Shown here: piece after piece, positions 22,534 to 34,093 of the stretch
How positions within the stretch are numbered: the first letter of the stretch is position 1
Layout of the letters: every line of letters starts with the position of its first letter
Origin: Naegleria gruberi
Lineage: Eukaryota
Strand: one strand, 5' to 3'
NCBI GenBank assembly: GCA_000004985.1
Contig: GG738867.1
DNA length: 64,000 nucleotides
Notes under the pieces: model-generated
Database searches by the model: none
Told to the model about the DNA's origin: nothing
The model's input: the letters and a program-made list of their open reading frames with translations, nothing else
Translations under genes and position numbers: made by a program

Positions 22534-23356
22534 AGTGAAAGTTGGCCCAAAAAATTTTTTGTCAAAAAAATGGCCAAGTCAAGAAAAATGGGCAAAAAAA
22601 TGCAAAGTCAGAGATTTCCCTCCTTGCAAAACAGCCCGCCAACACCGTTACGAATAAAATTTGAAATAAATAGAAATTTTTCACCTTTAAATAGTGGTTT
22701 TATTGAAGATTAAAGTAATGTTTCTACCAACAACCGTATCAGAGTACCTCGTAAGCTAGTGGACAAGGATGACAAGCAACCTAGAGTGCTCCAATTCGCA
22801 TAATTCCTCAGTTAACTGGTCAAAGAATAAGGTGTAACTTCTCCAAATTCGTTGGTGGTCAACAGCAAGGATTTGTCTACTTCCATCTATGATATTCTTG
22901 CTGAAGGAAGACAACCCTTAAAACCATTTCACATTCTTCATGTTAACAACACTATGGCTACTTGTTTTCCTGCGGCACTTGGCGATGTTCTTTACAGCAA
23001 TGGAATCCATCATACAACAATTACGAATTAATTAATGGTCCACGAGATGAGTATGAAGTTTTCGAAAAGACTTTCCTTAGAGGAGAGAGGCAGAGAAAGT
23101 ACATAACAAACTACCTCCACTGTGGTAGGAAGGCGAACGAGGTGTATAGGATTGACATCATCACAAGATATTTGTTTTTGACCAATGATATGGAAGATGA
23201 CTTGGTGCCTCTGGTGCTGACTACAGTTCCGATGATGGTGTGAGTAGTGATGATGAGTAATTAATTTTTTTTTATTAAATTTAAACATTAAGCGGGGGCG
23301 CGAGTTTTTGTAACTTTGCCATTTGTTTAAGGGTCGCGAGCGACACTTTTTACCAG

Positions 23357-23373
23357 GCTTCAGCGTTAGTCTA
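23357..23373. repeat. Right terminal inverted repeat of the transposon, followed by the target-site-duplication copy ATCATTTC at 23374..23381.
   Basis: It is the exact reverse complement of 22517..22533. Confidence 0.8.
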
Positions 23374-24269
23374 ATCATTTCTCGATAGTGATCTTCTGAT
23401 ATCTTTTTAACTGGAAATTGCATTCCATTTTCATCCAATAAATGTTTGAATAGAGCAAATCTTGAAAGATGAATTAATTCTTCACATTTCTCTTGCAAAG
23501 AATGAATTTTGGATGATTTACAAGTTTCTTTGAGAAACATTTCAATAACAGACTTGCAAACTGAAATTCTGTTCGACTGTTTTGCAACAGAGAGACAGAT
23601 TCTTTTACAATTCATATAAAACCATTTCATTTTCATCAAATACGAATACAATTCCAGGATGGTCATTTCATTACACTGTAAATCATCTAAATCCAAAGTA
23701 AATTGATTAATATTTGGTGTTTTCTCTCCTAATTCCTTCAACAGCGAAATTTCATGTTGACCTCCACTCATTTCGTTTTGTAAAGCTATTTCATTAACTT
23801 GATTCATTGCTCTTGAGAAGACTGCAGACAAGAAGTTCTGCATCTCATTGAACGGTATCTTTGACATTATATTGAATGCAGAAGCATAAAAGAAAACCAT
23901 TGAAAATGATGATGAGGAACGAGAATGAATTTGTTGAGTGTCATCTTGAAGAGAGGAAAGAAAATCTTCTTTCCATTTTACTGAATCTTTCATTTGAATT
24001 AATAGAAGAAGTAAATATCTTTGGACTGAATTAATTTCAATATCTTTGAATGAGTTAATATCTCTTCCGATAGCAGTTGGGTGGTCATTGTCTGATGTTG
24101 AAGGATGGCTGTTGACATCTAGGTCTGTTAAACATAATTCTTCAGCCATTTTTTTAATGAAAACCAAAAAGGCAACCAACTGTAAGATGTATGATAGGAA
24201 GTTTTCAAATATTTTCTCACAGTTACCTTAAGATAAAAGTACTCTTTAGAAATTACATTAAAAAATAAT

Positions 24270-26153
24270 TTAATCTTGTGGAGCAACAAGTCCATTTTCC
24301 TTTGGTTTCAACAAGTATTCCAAAATTGAAGGGGTAATTTCTTCCAACAAGTCAAAGGCCTTTTGCTTATCCATGTCATTGGTTTCAACGTACCATTTAA
24401 GCTTTGGTTCAGTACCACTGTTTCTGATGGTTGCAGAAGTACCATTTTCAAAAGTGAAAGTAATCATTTGAGAAGTTGGAGTGGCAGGAAGAAGTGGCTT
24501 GTTATCCTTTTGGGCAGAATCATAGTCTTTAGTCAAATCTCTGAGAGAAGCAATCTTGAAGTGCTTTGAACTATCTCTAATACTTGGAATGAAGGTTGGA
24601 TATCCACCATTTTCAATCTTTCTGAGTTCTTCCATAACCTTGTGCAACAAGTCAGTGGATGGTGTGAAGAAGTAACGAGTCTTCATGGCAAAGAAACCAT
24701 ACTTCTTATAGATATTTTCAATTTGTTCACTCAAACGTTTAACAACACCTCCCTTGTAGTGACTGTGGGCCATTTCAGCAAAAACTGAAGCAGCTCTAAC
24801 ACCATCCTTATCCAAACTACAGTCACCAACCAAGAATCCAATTTCAACTTCATAACCTAACAAGAAAGTGTATCCATCCTTGATATATTGATCAGCTCTG
24901 TTACCAATCCATTTGAAACCAGTGAGAGTTTCATCAAACTTGAAACCTTCATGAGCAGCCATAGCTCTCAAAATCTTTGAACTGACGGTACTGGCAATCA
25001 TGACACACTTGGCGTAGTCTTCGTTTGGATGAGAAGTCTTATATTGAGTCCAAACCCAATCAGCCAACAACATGGCAATTTCGTTACCATTGAAAATTCT
25101 CCAAGATCCATCAACTTGTCTTTCAGCAACAGCCAATCTGTCAGCATCTGGATCGTTAGCCAAAATGAGAATAGCACCTTCCTTTTCACACTTGTCCATG
25201 GCAAGTTTGAGAGCACCTTTACCTTCCTCAGGATTTGGATATTTTACAGTGGTAAATTCTGGATCAGCTTCAATTTGCTCTTCAACAGGAATGCATTTTG
25301 GTAAACCATACAAATCAATAGCTCTATATGTGAAAGGAGTACCAACACCATGCATAGCAGTATATACAATTTTCTCATCGGAAATAACTGGCTTACCATT
25401 GCTGTAATTATATTTACGAATGGCTTCAAAATATTCATCAGCTTGAGTTTTGGTTGGATCTTGCAACAAGTGAGACCATGGAGACAAATCAATAACTTGT
25501 TCTTCATCACCTCCATTTCCGTCTGTCTTTAATTGTTTTCTAACTTCTTCCCAAATTGATAAATTTTGCATGATAGCAGCAGAAATGTATTCATCTTGTG
25601 GAGGAATAATTTGACAACCATTTTCCCAATATAATTTATAACCATTATCTTGCTTTGGGTTGTGTGATGCAGTAACCATGACACCAGCAATGCATCTCTC
25701 TCCACTATTACTTCTATTAATATTACTGACAGCAAAAGGAACAAATGGTGTGCATACCATTGTTCTAAACAAATGTACAGTGTATCCCTTGGAGAGGAAA
25801 ACACCAGCAGTCAAGTTTGCATATTGTTTAGAATGATGTCTGCCATCATATCCGACAACTACAGAAACTTTGCTCCTATCACTAACATCTTTTGTACATT
25901 CTTCAATGTATTTACAAACTCCTTGAGATGTTTGCAAAATAATCAATTCATTCATGCATGAAAATCCAGCAGCCATCAAACTTCTCAAGCCAGCTGTACC
26001 AAATTCAATACGCTTACATAATCTCTTTTCCAATTCAGCTACATTTCCCTGTTGGACAAGGTTTTGAATATCCTTTCTAGTCACTTCAAAAGGATCAAGC
26101 TCCAACCATTGATCGACGAGTTGTTGAATATGTTGAGGAATTGTTTGGGACAT
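24270..26153 (-). CDS. Phosphoglucomutase-2 / phosphopentomutase (alpha-D-phosphohexomutase family, PGM2-like), 627 aa.
   Basis: A single ORF. The active-site phosphoserine loop reads VTASHNPKQDNGYKLYW, and the N-terminus contains FGTAGLR. Length and architecture are typical of eukaryotic PGM2/PGM2L1. The ATG at 26151-26153 follows an A-run. Confidence 0.85.
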   Translation of the reverse strand: MSQTIPQHIQQLVDQWLELDPFEVTRKDIQNLVQQGNVAELEKRLCKRIEFGTAGLRSLMAAGFSCMNELIILQTSQGVCKYIEECTKDVSDRSKVSVVVGYDGRHHSKQYANLTAGVFLSKGYTVHLFRTMVCTPFVPFAVSNINRSNSGERCIAGVMVTASHNPKQDNGYKLYWENGCQIIPPQDEYISAAIMQNLSIWEEVRKQLKTDGNGGDEEQVIDLSPWSHLLQDPTKTQADEYFEAIRKYNYSNGKPVISDEKIVYTAMHGVGTPFTYRAIDLYGLPKCIPVEEQIEADPEFTTVKYPNPEEGKGALKLAMDKCEKEGAILILANDPDADRLAVAERQVDGSWRIFNGNEIAMLLADWVWTQYKTSHPNEDYAKCVMIASTVSSKILRAMAAHEGFKFDETLTGFKWIGNRADQYIKDGYTFLLGYEVEIGFLVGDCSLDKDGVRAASVFAEMAHSHYKGGVVKRLSEQIENIYKKYGFFAMKTRYFFTPSTDLLHKVMEELRKIENGGYPTFIPSIRDSSKHFKIASLRDLTKDYDSAQKDNKPLLPATPTSQMITFTFENGTSATIRNSGTEPKLKWYVETNDMDKQKAFDLLEEITPSILEYLLKPKENGLVAPQD

Positions 26154-26359: not shown

Positions 26360-28913
26360 ATGGAAAGAGTTTCGCCTCATGTTCATCTCTTGGCAAATAT
26401 TTGGGAAAATGAAAATTGTAAACTTCCTATCATTATTGAAAAACATAAAGAAGAAGATTTAAAATCATCGCCATTATCTTCTAAAAGAATTGATTATTTA
26501 ATTCCGAATCAGAAACTATTGATCAATTCAAATATTTATTCAATTGATTTATTAAGTAATGATGCAAATTGTGATGATAATAATAATACATCTCCAATTG
26601 ATGATGGAATTAATCATCATGATGGGAATGAATTAGAAGAAATTACTTGTCTTGATCGATTGTTTGTGTTGGAAGAGGTTTTATCGAGGGAGGAATGTCA
26701 AGATTTGATCAATGTGACTAATGAATTAGGTTATCGTTCGATTGATAGAGAATATTCGAAAGAGTATAGAAATAGTGAGAGAGTAGTGGTAACTAGTAAG
26801 AAAGTAGCAGAAATATTGTGGAATAGGATAGTGTAGGTTTTACAGTTTGGTTCATTTACTGATAAATTCGAATAGACCATTGATGAAGAAGGAAGATATT
26901 GCTAATGTGAAACCATACGGATTTGATAATAACGGGAAATGGATTCCAATAGAATTATCAGAATGTTTGAGATTTAACAGATATAAGGAAGGAAATTTCT
27001 TTAAACCTCACATGGATTCTCACTTTGTCAGAAATGACAATGAGAGAAGCATATTTACCATTCTTATTTATTTAGATGATTCTCCTTACGGTACTACCTT
27101 TTGGAAAAAGATTCCAGACGAAACAAATGAGGAACTTGCCAGCACCAAAATGAATTTCAAGAAATTATTAACAGTTCAACCAAAAGCTGGATCCATAGCA
27201 ATATTTAATCATGATATTTATCACTCTGGAGATTTTGTAAATGAAGGGTACAAATATGTTGTCAGAACTGAAATGATTTTCAAGAGAATAGATCCAGAAA
27301 GTGTATATAGACAAGATTATAGAGAAACAGCAGAATTTCAAAAAGTGAAACAATTAGTGGACGAAAGCAATCAATTAGAGAAGGAAGGAAATTTAAAGCT
27401 TTCCACCCAAAAATATATTCAAGCCCATGAATTACAAACTACAAAAGCCAACAGTATCCAAAAGGTTAACATTTCTAACAGGATTGGGCAATTACCAGAA
27501 GAAATGTTCCTTCTCATATTTTCATTTATGAAAACAGAGGAAATTTCAAACTCTTTCATCAAACTTGATAGAAACCTGAACTCTATCACAAGACACTCAA
27601 AGGTTTGGAAGGAAAGATATTGTCAAAAGTGGTCAGACAAACCCAAAGTCCCTCTCAACAAAGCAAATGGATTTAAACGAGATTATTACTATCAAATGGA
27701 TGATGACGAAATAGTTGAAGAAGGAACAATCTACTCAATGGAAAATGCAATCACCATTCAACATGAACAAACACTGGGAGATTGGTATCATGCCTTTGCA
27801 ATGAGATCTAATCAAGAAAAATTTATGGAAGTTGTATTGCTAGATTTTGTTGGAGGCAATTATAGATATGGACTTTCAAGCCAATCATTGTTTTACGTTT
27901 CGCCTGCCTCTTGTGGAATACCGAATCATCCTCATTTCTCTCTTGTGGGTTATGATTATCAGAGTATCCTTTGTGGTGATAGGTATTTTGTATCTGCTTT
28001 CCAGTGTGATGATCTTCCACTAATGGAAAGGAATGGGCAAATATTAGACATGCGTAATTTTAAAGAAATGATTACACAGCTTTACAGAGATGATCTGAAA
28101 AAGAGTATGGCTACTCCTCTATTGATTTCCATTCCAGTTGTGTGGACAGATAAACAATTATCAGTAGTTAGTACTGAACTGGTAAGTTATTTATTAATAC
28201 TGGATTAAACAGTTTATTTAAAGATTAACATGGGATTGGATGTAATATTTATTGATGAGGCAAAACTCAGGTCATTTTACTATCAGAAACCGAATTGTTT
28301 AATCATAAAATTGACAGAAAATGGAATTTATTTCATTCCAGTTAAGGAAAATGAGATGGTTAGAAAATATTATCATTTAAAAGATATGAAAAATCAAACC
28401 AGCTACCCATACCCATCAATTCTAAAAATCGCTTTCATTCCATCTGTTGACATAATTGACGAAACAGTCTTGAATGTTGAACCAATAGATATTGGAACAC
28501 ATTATAACCCAAAGATAGTTGGGAAAGAAGAAAGAGTCAAATTAGGAACAGAAATATTATTACAGGTAACAAATGCAATAGAAGAATATAAGAATTGTAT
28601 AGAAAATTGGAAAAGCAGAAATGTGACTGATAATATAATAGTTGTTGGAGAGTTTGCTCATTTGGAAAATATGAAATCCGTAGTTATTGGCCTACTCAGC
28701 AAAAATTTTCCAAATAGTTCCATTACGTATCAAGAAAATCACTTAGACAAGACGGTCAAAATTATTAACGAAAACAGTAGAAAGATGGGATATAGAGGAG
28801 GTTCTTTTGATGTTGTGGGTGGAGCAAAGATAATTTGCAGTTTGAGTAACTTTAGGGAGGATTATTATGAAAAACGTTCTAAAAAGAAAGAAAAGCGATG
28901 CACAATTGCCTAA
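26360..28913 (+). CDS. Three-module protein of about 824 aa: an N-terminal prolyl-4-hydroxylase-like 2OG-Fe(II) oxygenase, an F-box, and a C-terminal actin-related-protein (actin-fold) domain. Structure: join(26360..26832, 26876..28181, 28224..28913).
   Basis: ORFs 26360..26836, 26847..28208 and 28230..28913 join in-frame through a 43-nt intron (GTAGGT..CGAATAG, phase 2) and a 42-nt intron (GTAAGT..TTTAAAG, phase 0). The oxygenase core reads RFNRYKEGNFFKPHMDSHF...SIAIFNHDIYHSGDFVNEGYKYVVRTEMIF (HxD...H...R). The F-box reads LPEEMFLLIFSFMKTEEISNSFIKLDRNLNSITRHSKVWKERYCQKW. The actin-fold signatures are MEVVLLDFVGGNYRYGL (phosphate-1-like DxxGxxxxxG), TELINMGLDVIFIDEAKLRSFYYQKPNCLIIKLTENGIYFIPV (compare actin [42 protein letters not shown]) and a C-terminal GGSFDVVGGAKIICSLSNF (compare actin WIGGSILASLSTF). 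Confidence 0.5.
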
Positions 28914-28916
28914 AAT

Positions 28917-29597
28917 TTAAACATGAATGACAGAGTCTACATTTTTATCATGTTTCTCGGTTGGAATGATGAATTTAGTCTCTTCACTATCGATTAATTG
29001 TTTCTCAATTAATTGGTGTTTGTAGTTATCTGAGAGTTGGAAGTTTTCGTCTATAAATTGGCATGAAAAACAAATTCCAACAAGATTAGTTTCAAATTCA
29101 GTCCTACTTTTCAATTCATCCATTTTATGGAAGAAGCTATCATAATAACCCTTTCCTCTTCCTAATCTTCTATTTGAATAATCAAATGCAAGTCCTGGAA
29201 CTACCACTAATAATTTACTATCTCCATTCAAAGAATTCAACAAATCTTTTCTATGAGATAAGCTTTCAATTGGAGGTTCCAATAATTTATATTTGGCATT
29301 GTGAATTTTAAATGTTGAAAAATCCAATTCATCCTTTAAAGAAACCATCTTCATAACATCTCCCATTACAATCGGAATAAACAATTGTTTTTCTTTTTTG
29401 AGAGCATCATGAATAATATCCATTGTATCAACTTCATTACCACTTTGCATTGGAATATAACAACAAACATGAGTACATTGTGAATAAAATTCACTATTTA
29501 AAATTCGTTGTGTTATGCTTTTGGATTCCGATTGGATTTGTTCTGGTGTTAAAAGGGAGAGTTGGCGTTTAAAGTATGAACGGAAGATATTTTTCAT
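28917..29597 (-). CDS. 5-formyltetrahydrofolate cyclo-ligase (MTHFS), 226 aa.
   Basis: A single ORF with family motifs ...VVPGLAFDYSNRRLGRGKGYYD... and an N-terminal ...SESKSITQRIL.... Its stop lies 3 bp from the stop of the convergent 26360..28913 gene. The start context is aaaaaaaATG. Confidence 0.8.
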   Translation of the reverse strand: MKNIFRSYFKRQLSLLTPEQIQSESKSITQRILNSEFYSQCTHVCCYIPMQSGNEVDTMDIIHDALKKEKQLFIPIVMGDVMKMVSLKDELDFSTFKIHNAKYKLLEPPIESLSHRKDLLNSLNGDSKLLVVVPGLAFDYSNRRLGRGKGYYDSFFHKMDELKSRTEFETNLVGICFSCQFIDENFQLSDNYKHQLIEKQLIDSEETKFIIPTEKHDKNVDSVIHV

Positions 29598-29675: not shown

Positions 29676-31064
29676 TTAGCATGATTCTATTGAAGGATAG
29701 CATACACAGAATGCTGCACTGTCCATTAATAACATGGACTCACCATCACTATTCCATTTAAAGTTTTGTACATTAAAGCTGGCACTTGGAATATCAACAC
29801 ATGAGCATCCTTCTCTTGACCAAATATAAATTTTTCCATTTCCTGTACAAATGGCCAATCTAACATGAACTGGATCCCATTGTGCATACCTAATTGGTTG
29901 TGTTTGTAATATAAGTGAACATAATGAAAGTTTGCTAGTTTCCCAAATCCATAATGCATTTGGCATGCTATCATTCCTAGTAAAGAAATATTTTGAATCA
30001 CAACTCCAATCCATCAATCCAACGCCTTCCTGAGGATTAGCCTTCTTATAATCGACAGCCTTAACAGTTTTCAAATTGACAGGCAGCTCAGCAATAACAT
30101 CTAATAGGTTAAATTATTTTGCCAAATTGAAAAACTTACATCTTGTTTTGCTGTGAGATGCAGACTTGTTTGTTCCAACAAATTCGACTTCTTGGAAAAC
30201 TACTGGATTATTTGGATGAGTTTCTATTGATACAGGTGTACCGTGATCGTATGTTGCTGTCAATTTCCATGTTAGATGATTGAGTATTCTAGCCTTTTGA
30301 TCGAAACTGCCAATAGACAACAACTGTCCATTTGGTGACCATTTAACGCTTTTGACACCCAATAAATCGTTATATGCAGAGTAGTGAGCAATCTCTGATC
30401 CTGCTGGCGAATATATTGTGACTGAGTATTCGATTTGATGATCCCATACTACAAGGAATCTACCATCAGGAGACCATTTCAAATCAGCAAGGTTCTTTGT
30501 CCTCACAGGAAAATGTTTAACTAATTCCCAAGTTTCTGTAACAATTATTGAAATGTAATCTTTACAATCTCTTCTTTCAGCAAGTGCCATATACTTTCCT
30601 CCATTTGGAGTAAAATCTATTCCTTTAGAAGTGAATTTAGGGTATTTGATATGTGCAACGTGTCCCGAAAATTCATCATTATCAGTTAAGGAATTATTCT
30701 TCAATATCGACCAAATTGTAATTCTTAATTGGAAATCAGCAGTAACAAGAACATGTCTTGAATCTGGAGAGAATCTTGCATAGCTTACTCCTGCTGGACC
30801 TTCCTCAATCTTACATTTCCAAGTGTTATCACTAATACTCCAAACCTCAACACAAGCTCTTTTATATTGAGCACAAAGAATAAATTCATTATCAGCACTC
30901 CATTCAATTTGAGAAATTACATCCGAACAAGTATAAATTCTCAACACTTGTAAAGACTCTACATCTTTAATCACTAGCCTATATCCTGATGAACTGGCAA
31001 TGTATTTTCCATTTGGCGAAAATTTACAAATACCAGAATATTTAAATACTTCACTAAAATCCAT
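29676..31064 (-). CDS. WD40-repeat protein, WRAP73/WDR8-like, of about 450 aa. Exons about 30140..31064 and 29676..30100; intron about 39 nt (GTAAGT..TATTAG, phase 1).
   Basis: ORFs 30114..31064 and 29676..30074 join as ...HSKTR / Y / VIAELPVNLKTVKAVDYKK.... Repeated WD-like blades are present (KFSPNGKYIASSS, WSADNEFILCAQ, FSPDSRHVLVTADFQLRITIWS, WSPDGRFLVVWD, WSPNGQLLSIGSFDQKARILN, and the C-terminal WDPVHVRLAICTGNGKIYIWS). The overall order matches WRAP73. Confidence 0.65.
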
Positions 31065-31864: not shown

Positions 31865-34093
31865 TTAATCACTATCACTGGAATCGTCACTACTATCCGA
31901 AGCACTATCGCTAGAGTCATCACTATCTGAATCACTACTATCAGATTGGACCTTAGTTGCCATTTCTTTAAGGTACACCTTTAAATCTTCTGCTAATTGA
32001 GGCAGATCAATAAGCAACCAAAAGTTAATAGCGAATCTAACAACTTTAGGATTATCCTTAGGGAATAATCCAGTAAAGAATGGTTTTTGAGTTTCATTGT
32101 ACAATAATCTGTTCTTGAGGGCTTCCATTCCAAATTTTTGTTGTAACTCTTGGAAAAGAATTTTGAGGAAAATTCTACTGTATGATGTGGTATCGGATTC
32201 TGTTATTTTAACAGCAGAGAAAATGGACCACGAAATGGAATCTGAAACTAATAAATGGCTGAATAGCTTTGCAATATTTCTGAGTCTACTTGTTTCGTAT
32301 CTGTGGAGAATTTGATATTGCAATTGGAAGCATTCTTCAAAATCACGTTTGAAGACATCTTGAAGTTGGCAGAATCTTTCAGCCAAAGAACCAAAGAAAT
32401 CCAAATAGCTTCTCTCCTGACTACAACATTCAATAATCATAGAACAAACTTCCATATCATGTTCCTTAGCAAGACCTGACTTTAACAGTTTGTGGGCTGC
32501 TTCTTCATATCCCAAAGAAGACATAATAGTAAGATAGATCTTTCTCTTGAGATCTGTTGACCCCTCATCAGTTTTAGTCTTTGGATCCAGAAGGGTATTC
32601 TTTTGGCCTTCTGCGTTAATTTGAATTTCTTGAACTCCTCCAAATGCCTCATCACTATGAGCTTGAGGTTCTTCCTCTCCTCCCACTTCTTCTTCTTCTT
32701 CCTCGCCTAGAATCTCTTTTTTAATTTCCTTGTATCTTTCCTCATTTTCTTCAAATTCTTCATCAAATTGGAAAATGTCCAAATTATCCTCTGTGTCAAT
32801 ATCTTTTGAAATTTCGATAGCATCATGAGTGATTCTATCATCATCCTCAACAAGATCCAACTCCTCCGTTATTGATGGATAGTCCTTGAATTCAAGTTTT
32901 CTGATATTAAACAATGATTCTATTTGGTATTGTACACGTCTATCAATTTTTCCTTCATGTAAAATATTTCTGAAAGCTTCAAAAACAGCAGAGAGAATTT
33001 TTGGTGCTACTTCCAAAAGAGTTTTACCACATTCCTTTACAAATGTCACACCTAGTTCTACAGAATCATTTGTTGAATTTTCCAATAGCAAGGAAAGTAA
33101 TTGTCCAGCCAAAATTTCACTTGCAACTTGTTGGTTTACCAAGTGAGCAATAAAGTGACAAGAAGCAATGCACTTTTGCTTGTCATTCCTGCTGAATGAT
33201 TTTACAAATTGGCTTACCAGACGCTTAATTAATAATTCGCCTATTTCTGGAATCCTGGTATTAACGACTGAGATCAGAGCAGAATAAACATTACTAAATT
33301 GGATTGATGCAAGCTGAGCCTTCATAATTGCTCTAACTAATAATCCTTTTCCTCTAATGATATTTTCAGAAAACAGTTCAGGTAACACATCAGCAATATT
33401 AGCAGAGTTGACCTTGTTTACAATACCATTGAGTGTTTTCTTAAGGGCTTCCCAGTTCAATTTTTGAAATTCCTCACTCGATTTGTCGGTATTTTGTTGC
33501 AACTTTCTCAATTTGAATGGAGGAATGTACACATTATCAGTTTTTGGTGTACTCTCCTCTCTTCTATCATTTCTTCTGTCATTGTCATATCTATTGTCAC
33601 GACGTGGTGGTCTATCATCATATCTTCTATCCCTTCTATCATAATTTCTATCGTCTCTTCTATAATCATCCCTCCTATCATCTCTTCTATCATAATTATC
33701 CCTAGAATATCTTCTATCATCTCTTCTATAATCGTCTCTCCTATCATAATTTCTATCATCCTTTCTGTAATCACTTCTATCATCACGTCTATCATATGAT
33801 TTTCTATCCGATCTCCTATCATCATTTAATCTACGTTCATTATGGGTTCTATCCTCATAATCCTTCCTCTTGAGATCATTCTCGGAAGCAGAAGCTTCAA
33901 CAGATTGTTTAATTTCAACCTTCTCCACAACATTATCATTACTATCCACTACATCCTCTTTTGTTTCTGATGATGATGGTGGTGGTGATGATGAAGGAGG
34001 TTGTGCTGTTGTATTTGTATCACCTGATTCTTGATCCAATTGTGAAGGTGATGGCGGAAGAGCATCATTATCACCTGCGGCACTGTTGCTCAT
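31865..34093 (-). CDS. Pre-mRNA splicing factor CWC22 homolog (MIF4G + MA3 domains, RD/RS-like N-terminal tract), 742 aa.
   Basis: A single ORF. The N-terminus carries an RDD/RRD/DRR dipeptide-repeat tract (DRRSDRKSYDRRDDRSDYRKDDRNYDRRDDYRRDDRRY...). A MIF4G region (NWEALKKTLNGIVNKVNSANIADVLPELFSENIIRGKGLLVRAIMKAQ...) and an MA3 region follow, in the same order as CWC22/nucampholin. The C-terminus is acidic and Ser-rich. The ATG at 34091-34093 follows an A-run. Confidence 0.8.
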   Translation of the reverse strand: MSNSAAGDNDALPPSPSQLDQESGDTNTTAQPPSSSPPPSSSETKEDVVDSNDNVVEKVEIKQSVEASASENDLKRKDYEDRTHNERRLNDDRRSDRKSYDRRDDRSDYRKDDRNYDRRDDYRRDDRRYSRDNYDRRDDRRDDYRRDDRNYDRRDRRYDDRPPRRDNRYDNDRRNDRREESTPKTDNVYIPPFKLRKLQQNTDKSSEEFQKLNWEALKKTLNGIVNKVNSANIADVLPELFSENIIRGKGLLVRAIMKAQLASIQFSNVYSALISVVNTRIPEIGELLIKRLVSQFVKSFSRNDKQKCIASCHFIAHLVNQQVASEILAGQLLSLLLENSTNDSVELGVTFVKECGKTLLEVAPKILSAVFEAFRNILHEGKIDRRVQYQIESLFNIRKLEFKDYPSITEELDLVEDDDRITHDAIEISKDIDTEDNLDIFQFDEEFEENEERYKEIKKEILGEEEEEEVGGEEEPQAHSDEAFGGVQEIQINAEGQKNTLLDPKTKTDEGSTDLKRKIYLTIMSSLGYEEAAHKLLKSGLAKEHDMEVCSMIIECCSQERSYLDFFGSLAERFCQLQDVFKRDFEECFQLQYQILHRYETSRLRNIAKLFSHLLVSDSISWSIFSAVKITESDTTSYSRIFLKILFQELQQKFGMEALKNRLLYNETQKPFFTGLFPKDNPKVVRFAINFWLLIDLPQLAEDLKVYLKEMATKVQSDSSDSDSDDSSDSASDSSDDSSDSD
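33530..33830. repeat. Coding low-complexity repeat (the RD/DR/RY dipeptide-repeat tract of CWC22), repetitive at the DNA level.
   Basis: Reiterated tct atc a(t)(c) units on the plus strand encode the Arg-Asp repeats on the minus strand. They generate spurious overlapping ORFs on both strands (33464..33799, 33508..33825, 33517..33705). Confidence 0.6.

Follow-up and report, generated by a model that had tools for sequence, protein, structure and literature searches.

In KDM2A and KDM2B (FBXL11 and FBXL10) a 2-oxoglutarate (2OG) oxygenase, an F-box and a C-terminal interaction domain are joined in one chain; the enzyme is a JmjC demethylase, the chain also carries CxxC and PHD fingers and leucine-rich repeats (LRRs), and both are chromatin proteins. 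FBXL5 is an F-box protein with an N-terminal iron- and oxygen-sensing domain, and PhyA, the Skp1 prolyl 4-hydroxylase of Dictyostelium and Toxoplasma, is a single-domain enzyme of the PHD type in which an Arg binds 2OG and which modifies Skp1 in trans. A protist chain of F-box and Fe/2OG dioxygenase is found in JcdI (Fbxo13) of Dictyostelium, which binds Skp1 via its F-box and whose Km for O2 is about 22%; the O2 dependence is physiological, and the protein is conserved across protists (PMC9485057). Here we describe a gene of Naegleria gruberi, located at positions 26360 to 28913 on the plus strand of a 64,000-nucleotide stretch of contig GG738867.1 (the window), whose product combines a prolyl 4-hydroxylase (P4H)-like oxygenase, an F-box and an actin-related protein (Arp)-like domain.

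The known kind to which this protein belongs is the F-box protein carrying an oxygen-dependent enzyme, with KDM2A/B, JcdI and FBXL5 as analogues; what is new is the P4H-type enzyme together with the Arp-like domain. In JcdI the oxygenase is of the JmjC (JmjD6-like) rather than the P4H type, the F-box lies N-terminal to the enzyme and an actin fold is lacking. In FBXL5 the sensor is hemerythrin-like and not an enzyme, and the C-terminal receptor is an LRR domain. An actin fold at the position of a substrate receptor has, to our knowledge and in the literature searched, no precedent.

Structure of the gene

Three open reading frames (ORFs) lie on the plus strand (26360..26836, 26847..28208 and 28230..28913). 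Splicing out 26833-26875 and 28182-28223 gives a coding sequence of 2469 nucleotides (nt) with zero internal stops and a predicted product of 822 amino acids (aa), not the 824 aa of the initial annotation of this DNA, which had joined the same ORFs through two short canonical introns at these positions. The intact spliced frame and the paralogues, which are colinear over both junctions, bear that join out. The resulting gene is made up as follows.

26360..26832, plus strand: exon 1, aa 1-157 and two bases of codon 158, from the ORF and the spliced translation
26833..26875, plus strand: intron 1, 43 nt, GTAGGT...AATAG, phase 2, splitting codon 158
26876..28181, plus strand: exon 2, aa 158-593, identical to the public model P0001 from MKKEDIANV on
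28182..28223, plus strand: intron 2, 42 nt, GTAAGT...TAAAG, phase 0, with the same junction in P0001
28224..28913, plus strand: exon 3, aa 594-822, with the stop codon at 28911-28913

Across both introns the product aligns with full-length relatives, six in number, of 832-881 aa and 35-38% identity to the window protein, which come from N. gruberi, N. lovaniensis and N. fowleri. Junction 1 is ungapped in this alignment (WNRIV/PLMKKED, the slash marking the junction, against WQRIQPFLTAED and WSRIVPFLKKSD), and junction 2 shows a one-residue difference. P0010, a 237-aa stand-alone fungal homologue, also crosses junction 1. In three ORFs that read through the first intron an Arg stands right before the conserved Pro: NSN-R-PLMKK in the second ORF of the window (26847-26882), and NVY-R-PYLKK and ILI-R-PYLTD at the N-termini of P0008 and P0009. 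This Arg is the product expected of an intron ending in AG followed by an exon base A, suggesting that the phase-2 position of intron 1 is conserved. An intron of 39 nt on the minus strand (30101-30139, GTAAGT...TTAG) fuses the ORFs 30114-31064 and 29676-30074 into a neighbouring WD40-repeat gene and serves as a comparator within the window; the two short introns of the gene are similar to it in style.

Junction 2 is already used by P0001, a public N. gruberi 'predicted protein' of 662 aa that agrees with most of the product at 100% identity. P0001 begins at MKKEDIANV (about window position 26883) and omits exon 1; its oxygenase domain is thus 160 residues too short and is without the invariant R137 and R141, and the public model needs correction. 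Exon 1 codes for the first third of the oxygenase fold, and a counterpart is present in all full-length paralogues, with a start (MER..H...W) common to P0005 and P0002. Its N-terminal strand motif corresponds to a segment of the relative P0029 that is modelled as beta strands with a predicted local distance difference test (pLDDT) score of about 94, so that exon 1 belongs to the fold. Full-length and colinear homologues occur in more than 15 species, some of them from transcriptome assemblies (Physarum, Choanoeca, Salpingoeca, Stenamoeba), so that in those species one ORF holds the modules at the mRNA level. On this comparison the locus is one three-exon gene, predicted to encode a single 822-aa protein.

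The three modules and their conserved residues

Profile searches of each module agree with the initial annotation: the oxygenase passes alone, and the F-box and the actin-like domain are supported via family profiles. The regions of the protein and the motifs discussed below are as follows.

26360..26641, plus strand: N-terminal region, aa 1-94, a strand motif and a low-complexity acidic/Asn spacer
26480-26554, plus strand: strand motif SKRIDYLIPNQKLLINSNIYSIDLL, aa 41-65, conserved among Naegleria members
26642..27296, plus strand: P4H-like 2OG/Fe(II) oxygenase domain, aa 95-298, split by intron 1
27009..27017, plus strand: proposed Fe(II) ligands H203-M-D205, invariant in 136 relatives and aligned to HYD of B. 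anthracis P4H
27222..27254, plus strand: H274 (proposed distal Fe ligand) to K284 (proposed binder of the 2OG C5-carboxylate, at H+10), aligned to H...K of B. anthracis P4H, LHGGAPVTKGEK
27297..27482, plus strand: helical linker, aa 299-360, conserved also in stand-alone oxygenase homologues
27483..27635, plus strand: F-box, aa 361-411, LPEEMFLLIFSFM...VWKERYCQKW
27765..28859, plus strand: actin-fold (Arp-like) domain, aa 455-805, split by intron 2, with a degenerate nucleotide site
27924-27938, plus strand: family-specific motif NHPHF, aa 508-512
28860..28910, plus strand: short basic C-terminal tail DYYEKRSKKKEKRCTIA, aa 806-822, not conserved in paralogues

The Pfam domain 2OG-FeII_Oxy_3 (PF13640) matches aa 190-287 of the window protein with an E-value of 4.7e-8 (34.3 bits against a cut-off of 27), and is matched by all seven of the family members. 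A single-sequence search of the PDB with the oxygenase region of the window gave no match even at E 10. When a profile of 19 oxygenase-only relatives was used, the PDB matches were the P4H of B. anthracis (E 3e-13), Chlamydomonas P4H-1 (E 6e-8), human P4H-TM (E 4e-7) and vCPH of PBCV-1 (E 1.5e-5). The fold was examined on the 43%-identical relative P0029 rather than on the window protein. Its AlphaFold2 (AF2) model (pLDDT 92.1) shows a double-stranded beta-helix nearest to P4H/PHD enzymes, with structure-match scores of 17.6 for PBCV-1 vCPH, 17.2 for Chlamydomonas P4H-1 and 16.7 for Pseudomonas PPHD, followed by OGFOD1 (16.2), PiuC (16.2) and P4H-TM (16.1) and then by a Trichoplax PHD (16.0), Dictyostelium PhyA (15.8) and a Mimivirus lysyl hydroxylase (15.2). 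Foldseek on the P0029 oxygenase agrees, with best matches of the P4H type. The label 'P4H-like' is justified by these results.

The catalytic signature HxD...H...R that had been read from the window was right in its HxD...H part and wrong in its last residue. In the 136 relatives the H-x-D is invariant and the distal His, the Lys and the Arg are nearly so. Among the 19 oxygenase-only sequences H203, D205, K284, R137 and R141 are invariant, and H274, H270 and R288 nearly invariant. H203, D205 and H274 align with HYD...H of B. anthracis P4H, as is expected of an intact facial triad. A basic residue is present at H+10, and it is Lys instead of Arg: K284 lies opposite the Lys of TLHGGAPVTKGEK in B. 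anthracis P4H, and a Lys at H+10 is the 2OG-binding residue of collagen-type P4Hs. Judged from this alignment, the residue that binds 2OG is more likely K284 than an Arg. A PHD-type Arg motif was considered and rejected, K284 being the aligned residue.

The collagen-type P4Hs used for comparison (PBCV-1 vCPH, 5c5t; Chlamydomonas P4H-1, 2jig/2jij; B. anthracis P4H, 3itq/5hv0; human P4H-TM, 6tp5) differ in being stand-alone or endoplasmic reticulum/secretory enzymes without F-box or actin fold, and identity to them is only 20-26%. The family's own features are an invariant YRxxxR motif and the helical linker. The linker is matched by a hidden Markov model (HMM), LINK, built from the family, is present in stand-alone proteins of roughly 295 aa, and is helical in a low-confidence model. 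Matches to DUF1831 and SUB1_ProdP9 in the linker and the spacer were rejected as sub-threshold noise.

The F-box in the middle of the protein also stands. The window segment is weak when taken alone, yet it occupies the same alignment columns as relatives in which Pfam F-box-like passes (five of seven Naegleria-clade members, best 1.2e-6; distant members to 5e-12), and it keeps the F-box core LPxE..IF.F. A family profile of 25 sequences, with the window segment as its first row, was searched against the PDB and matched solely genuine F-boxes of solved SCF subunits. FBXL5 was the best of these (E 7.6e-14), followed by KDM2A (E 3e-11; KDM2A/B 3e-11 to 9e-11), FBXL2 (E 4.5e-11), Skp2 (E 6e-11), Cdc4 (E 2.6e-10) and Fbxw7 (E 1e-9). 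By sequence comparison, the homology of the window segment to F-boxes appears secure, and the segment would be expected to dock on Skp1. The strings that had been quoted from the sequence were all recovered in the translation (VWKERYCQKW, aa 401-410; DFVGGNYRYG, aa 481-490; GGSFDVVGGAKIICSLSNF, aa 785-803), as was LPEEMF (aa 364-369).

For the C-terminal domain, the Naegleria family profile matches residues 3-330 of actin (E 1e-10 to 1e-12) and the 136-sequence family profile residues 2-362 (E 4e-20), and Pfam Actin is matched by six of seven close relatives (best 2.2e-17). The best PDB matches are conventional actins, then Arp1 and Arp9. The assignment to the actin fold is supported at the level of the family; in the window copy the loop DFVGGNYR is degenerate and most nucleotide-site residues are gone. 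We aligned 25 family members with beta-actin, using its reference sequence and residue numbering, in a register consistent with the HMMER alignment. The family retains the structural Gly and Pro residues and other fold positions of actin, D11, G13, G55, G74, P102, G156, G301, G302 and G342, and is without S14/G15, D154, D157, Q137 and H161; the equivalent of subdomain 4 is occupied in only about 45% of the family alignment. Intact nucleotide-binding and hydrolysis motifs (P1 DxGSG..K, P2 DxGDG, Q137, H161, adenosine GG) were not found. The window copy reads DFVGGNYR for DNGSGMCK, KLTENG for DSGDGV and VVGEFAH for LSGGTTM, and it keeps the C-terminal GGAKI..LSNF motif. Its Arp-like domain is about 13% identical to actin and the most degenerate of the family; the Physarum member P0044 is less degenerate.

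Since catalytic and nucleotide-site residues have been lost, we conclude that the Arp-like domain is best read as an actin-fold interaction module, not as an ATPase or a polymerising actin; the window copy is probably unable to bind nucleotide. Yeast Arp7 and Arp9, both of which occur among the profile and Foldseek matches of the family, are similar in that their actin fold does not polymerise, serves interaction and has a degenerate nucleotide site. They differ in being stand-alone subunits of chromatin remodellers, whereas the domain described here is fused to other modules and has conventional actins as its best matches. At the position of the actin D-loop the family has a P-x-H-P-H-F motif without counterpart in actin, its His present in 92% of the 25 members.

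Distribution and descent of the family

Word-indexed searches, whether the query was the oxygenase domain or an alignment of 20 sequences, yielded hardly any proteins from outside Naegleria. The wide family was exposed by an exhaustive profile search of 1.84 billion representatives, which gave 259 proteins at E <= 1e-30. Family-derived HMMs were run on 163 retrieved relatives, of which 73 carry oxygenase, F-box and actin fold, 41 oxygenase and F-box only, and 35 the oxygenase only (fragments or stand-alone proteins), while 14 are fragments without oxygenase or F-box. Pfam applied to 38 distant members found the triple architecture in most, the remainder being without an actin match; all three domains are recognised by Pfam in Naegleria, Tieghemostelium, Cavenderia, Acytostelium, Physarum, Rhizophlyctis and Nowakowskiella. 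Members come from Heterolobosea (three Naegleria species and Willaertia), Amoebozoa (Tieghemostelium, Dictyostelium purpureum, Acytostelium, Cavenderia, Physarum, Stenamoeba and Pyxidicula), chytrid fungi (Rhizophlyctis and Nowakowskiella) and choanoflagellates (Salpingoeca infusionum and Choanoeca flexa, where the actin signal is weak but colinear). The triple architecture is the dominant one in the family across at least four eukaryotic lineages.

The cassette of oxygenase, linker and F-box also occurs in other settings: with C-terminal ankyrin repeats in place of the Arp-like domain in P0022, with an N-terminal NADAR domain in P0024 (Pyxidicula) and with an N-terminal rhodanese domain in P0039. 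Stand-alone proteins of oxygenase and linker were found in one basidiomycete and one giant virus, and an examination of viral contigs for the giant-virus homologue found nothing. About 30 long members have an unassigned C-terminal region of 400-700 aa, in which ten scanned members gave no Pfam match. In P0058 (Dictyostelium purpureum, 2127 aa) the three modules are followed by lipase, STAND NTPase and TPR domains; this long architecture may be an artefact of separate genes merged in the model.

In a crude neighbour-joining tree without support values the sequences cluster by major taxon, and the window copy branches early within Heterolobosea. This grouping by taxon is what old vertical inheritance would give, with duplications and losses in single lineages, as far as such a tree can suggest it; an ancient transfer is conceivable. 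Recent horizontal transfer was rejected, since the base composition is uniform with the neighbouring genes and the crude tree tracks taxonomy.

The initial annotation knew of no described protein with this architecture. That was right for the literature, in that no description was found in the Naegleria and Dictyostelium work searched on F-box proteins, actin-related proteins, prolyl hydroxylases and Skp1, and the architecture is mentioned neither in the Dictyostelium actinome paper (PMC2441452) nor in the Skp1-interactome paper and its supplement (PMC9485057). This gene is not alone in its architecture, which belongs to a widespread, conserved family, apparently undescribed in the searched literature, whose members are automatically labelled 'F-box domain-containing' or 'Fe2OG dioxygenase domain-containing' in databases.

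The window is about 32% G+C throughout and gene-dense, with long ORFs in the standard code. The genes around the fusion gene encode a phosphoglucomutase-family protein, a 5-formyltetrahydrofolate cyclo-ligase, the WD40 protein and a MIF4G/MA3 protein, and give no functional clue; the phosphoglucomutase and MIF4G/MA3 genes are of common housekeeping kinds. Those with mapped positions, and one further ORF, are as follows.

23028-24179, minus strand: ORF without a Pfam match
24270-26153, minus strand: four-domain phosphoglucomutase/phosphomannomutase
28917-29597, minus strand: 5-formyltetrahydrofolate cyclo-ligase gene, convergent, ending 3 nt from the stop codon of the fusion gene (both ends within 28911-28919)
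31865-34093, minus strand: MIF4G/MA3 protein

With a spacing of 3 nt between the convergent genes, the 3' ends of their transcripts must overlap or abut.

A proposed role and its alternatives

We propose that the protein hydroxylates other proteins while docked on Skp1, its Arp-like domain selecting the target; to this reading by analogy we give a probability of roughly 0.6. The product would be an 822-aa cytosolic multidomain protein of an old and widespread eukaryotic family. Its N-terminal domain would be catalytically active, hydroxylating proteins with Fe(II) and 2-oxoglutarate through the motif H203-x-D205...H274-x9-K284, and would belong by structure to the collagen-type prolyl 4-hydroxylases. 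The F-box would couple the protein to Skp1 and so to an SCF-type cullin ligase or another Skp1 complex. The actin-fold domain, without catalytic residues and at the usual substrate-receptor position of F-box proteins, would serve protein recognition. A client bound by it would be brought beside both an O2- and 2OG-dependent hydroxylase and the ubiquitylation machinery, and its modification or turnover might thereby be coupled to oxygen and metabolic state. The client may be actin or a regulator that normally binds actin. The oxygen-sensing or ligase-adaptor role suggested by the initial annotation is plausible in the light of the analogues.

Several points weigh against this proposal. The N. 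gruberi gene model is founded on homology, and among the Naegleria paralogues the window copy has diverged furthest (35-38% identity). Its F-box alone reaches only E 0.12 with Pfam F-box-like (12.6 bits against a cut-off of 24.3, covering profile positions 2-23), and its own Arp domain is not matched by Pfam Actin. At the actin nucleotide site G13, G156 and G302 are substituted in the window copy, and with this loss the domain may be structurally altered. The AF2 model of P0001 (662 aa, from an 8-sequence alignment) is poor (pLDDT 46.9), so that the fold evidence for the F-box and Arp parts of the window copy is indirect; Foldseek on this low-confidence model has Arp9, actin and Arp2/3 at the top with E about 1e-8 and a TM-score of only about 0.3. 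A tie of the domain to actin or its regulators would be a guess from the fold. Finally, in the known proteins that join an oxygenase to an F-box, the F-box is no clear degradation handle for substrates, and in JcdI it appeared to be regulatory (PMC9485057).

For this last reason we keep as the main rival, at rather low odds, a reading in which the architecture is the same and the F-box is a regulatory handle: the protein would be a Skp1-tethered enzyme, or itself a substrate of SCF auto-ubiquitylation, and would hydroxylate its client independently of ubiquitylation. Here one may point to KDM2B, whose F-box/LRR region assembles a non-degradative complex, and to JcdI, whose O2 phenotype needed dioxygenase activity and not the F-box, and whose association with Skp1 correlated with lower JcdI levels (PMC9485057). 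What speaks for a target-selecting role instead is the location of the Arp-like domain at the exact substrate-receptor position of F-box proteins, together with the exchange of that domain in P0022 for ankyrin repeats, a classical receptor domain. A different partner is envisaged if the hydroxylase, docked by its F-box, modifies Skp1 in cis in the manner of PhyA, as a self-contained Skp1 regulator. We consider this very improbable, given that the domain is nearer to collagen-type P4Hs (Lys at H+10; best matches vCPH, Chlamydomonas P4H-1 and B. anthracis P4H) than to the PHD/PhyA type, that stand-alone homologues in fungi and giant viruses are without an F-box, and that a conserved Arp domain of 350 aa would be left without a role.

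The weak scores of the window copy, the lowest in the family for both F-box and actin, along with the three lost glycines and the early branching seen in the crude tree, might also be read as decay or neofunctionalisation of this one paralogue, leaving only the oxygenase functional and an F-box and Arp domain that no longer work. The 822-codon ORF, free of frameshifts and with two precisely conserved splice junctions, indicates continued selection, and the LPxE..IF.F core and the GGAKI..LSNF motif have been kept; decay is in our view improbable. A still more basic objection, that three genes lie here or that adjacent ORFs were joined artefactually, could appeal to the in-frame stops at 26836 and 28208 in the unspliced sequence and to the public model that leaves out exon 1. 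Against the colinear full-length homologues in more than 15 species, transcriptome-derived ORFs among them, and an exon 1 that holds the first third of the oxygenase fold with R137 and R141, it is effectively refuted.

Beyond the Skp1-docked hydroxylase proposed here lies a bolder version, which we offer as speculation and think unlikely. The P4H-F-box-Arp protein would be an ancient module, possibly from the last eukaryotic common ancestor, in which an actin mimic captures actin or proline-rich actin-binding regulators (formins, WASP/SCAR-type proteins) for a collagen-type prolyl hydroxylase and an SCF ligase, and which has been lost in animals, Dikarya and plants. PHD3 has been reported to hydroxylate actin (PMC4161513), one of several reports of PHD substrates other than HIF; in later work recombinant PHDs showed no activity on substrates of this kind (PMC6739866). 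If the bolder version were true, the turnover of the cytoskeleton in amoeboid and flagellate cells would respond directly to the levels of oxygen and 2-oxoglutarate.

F-box proteins with an oxygen-dependent enzyme of their own are rare, and KDM2A/B and JcdI have been informative on how oxygen and metabolism reach chromatin and development. The family described here is a third and structurally different solution, with a collagen-type prolyl hydroxylase instead of a JmjC enzyme. It bears on the role of divergent 'orphan' actin-related domains and, conserved across Discoba, Amoebozoa, chytrid fungi and choanoflagellates and tractable through its members in dictyostelids and Physarum, provides a concrete target for work on oxygen sensing beyond the HIF and PhyA-Skp1 systems.

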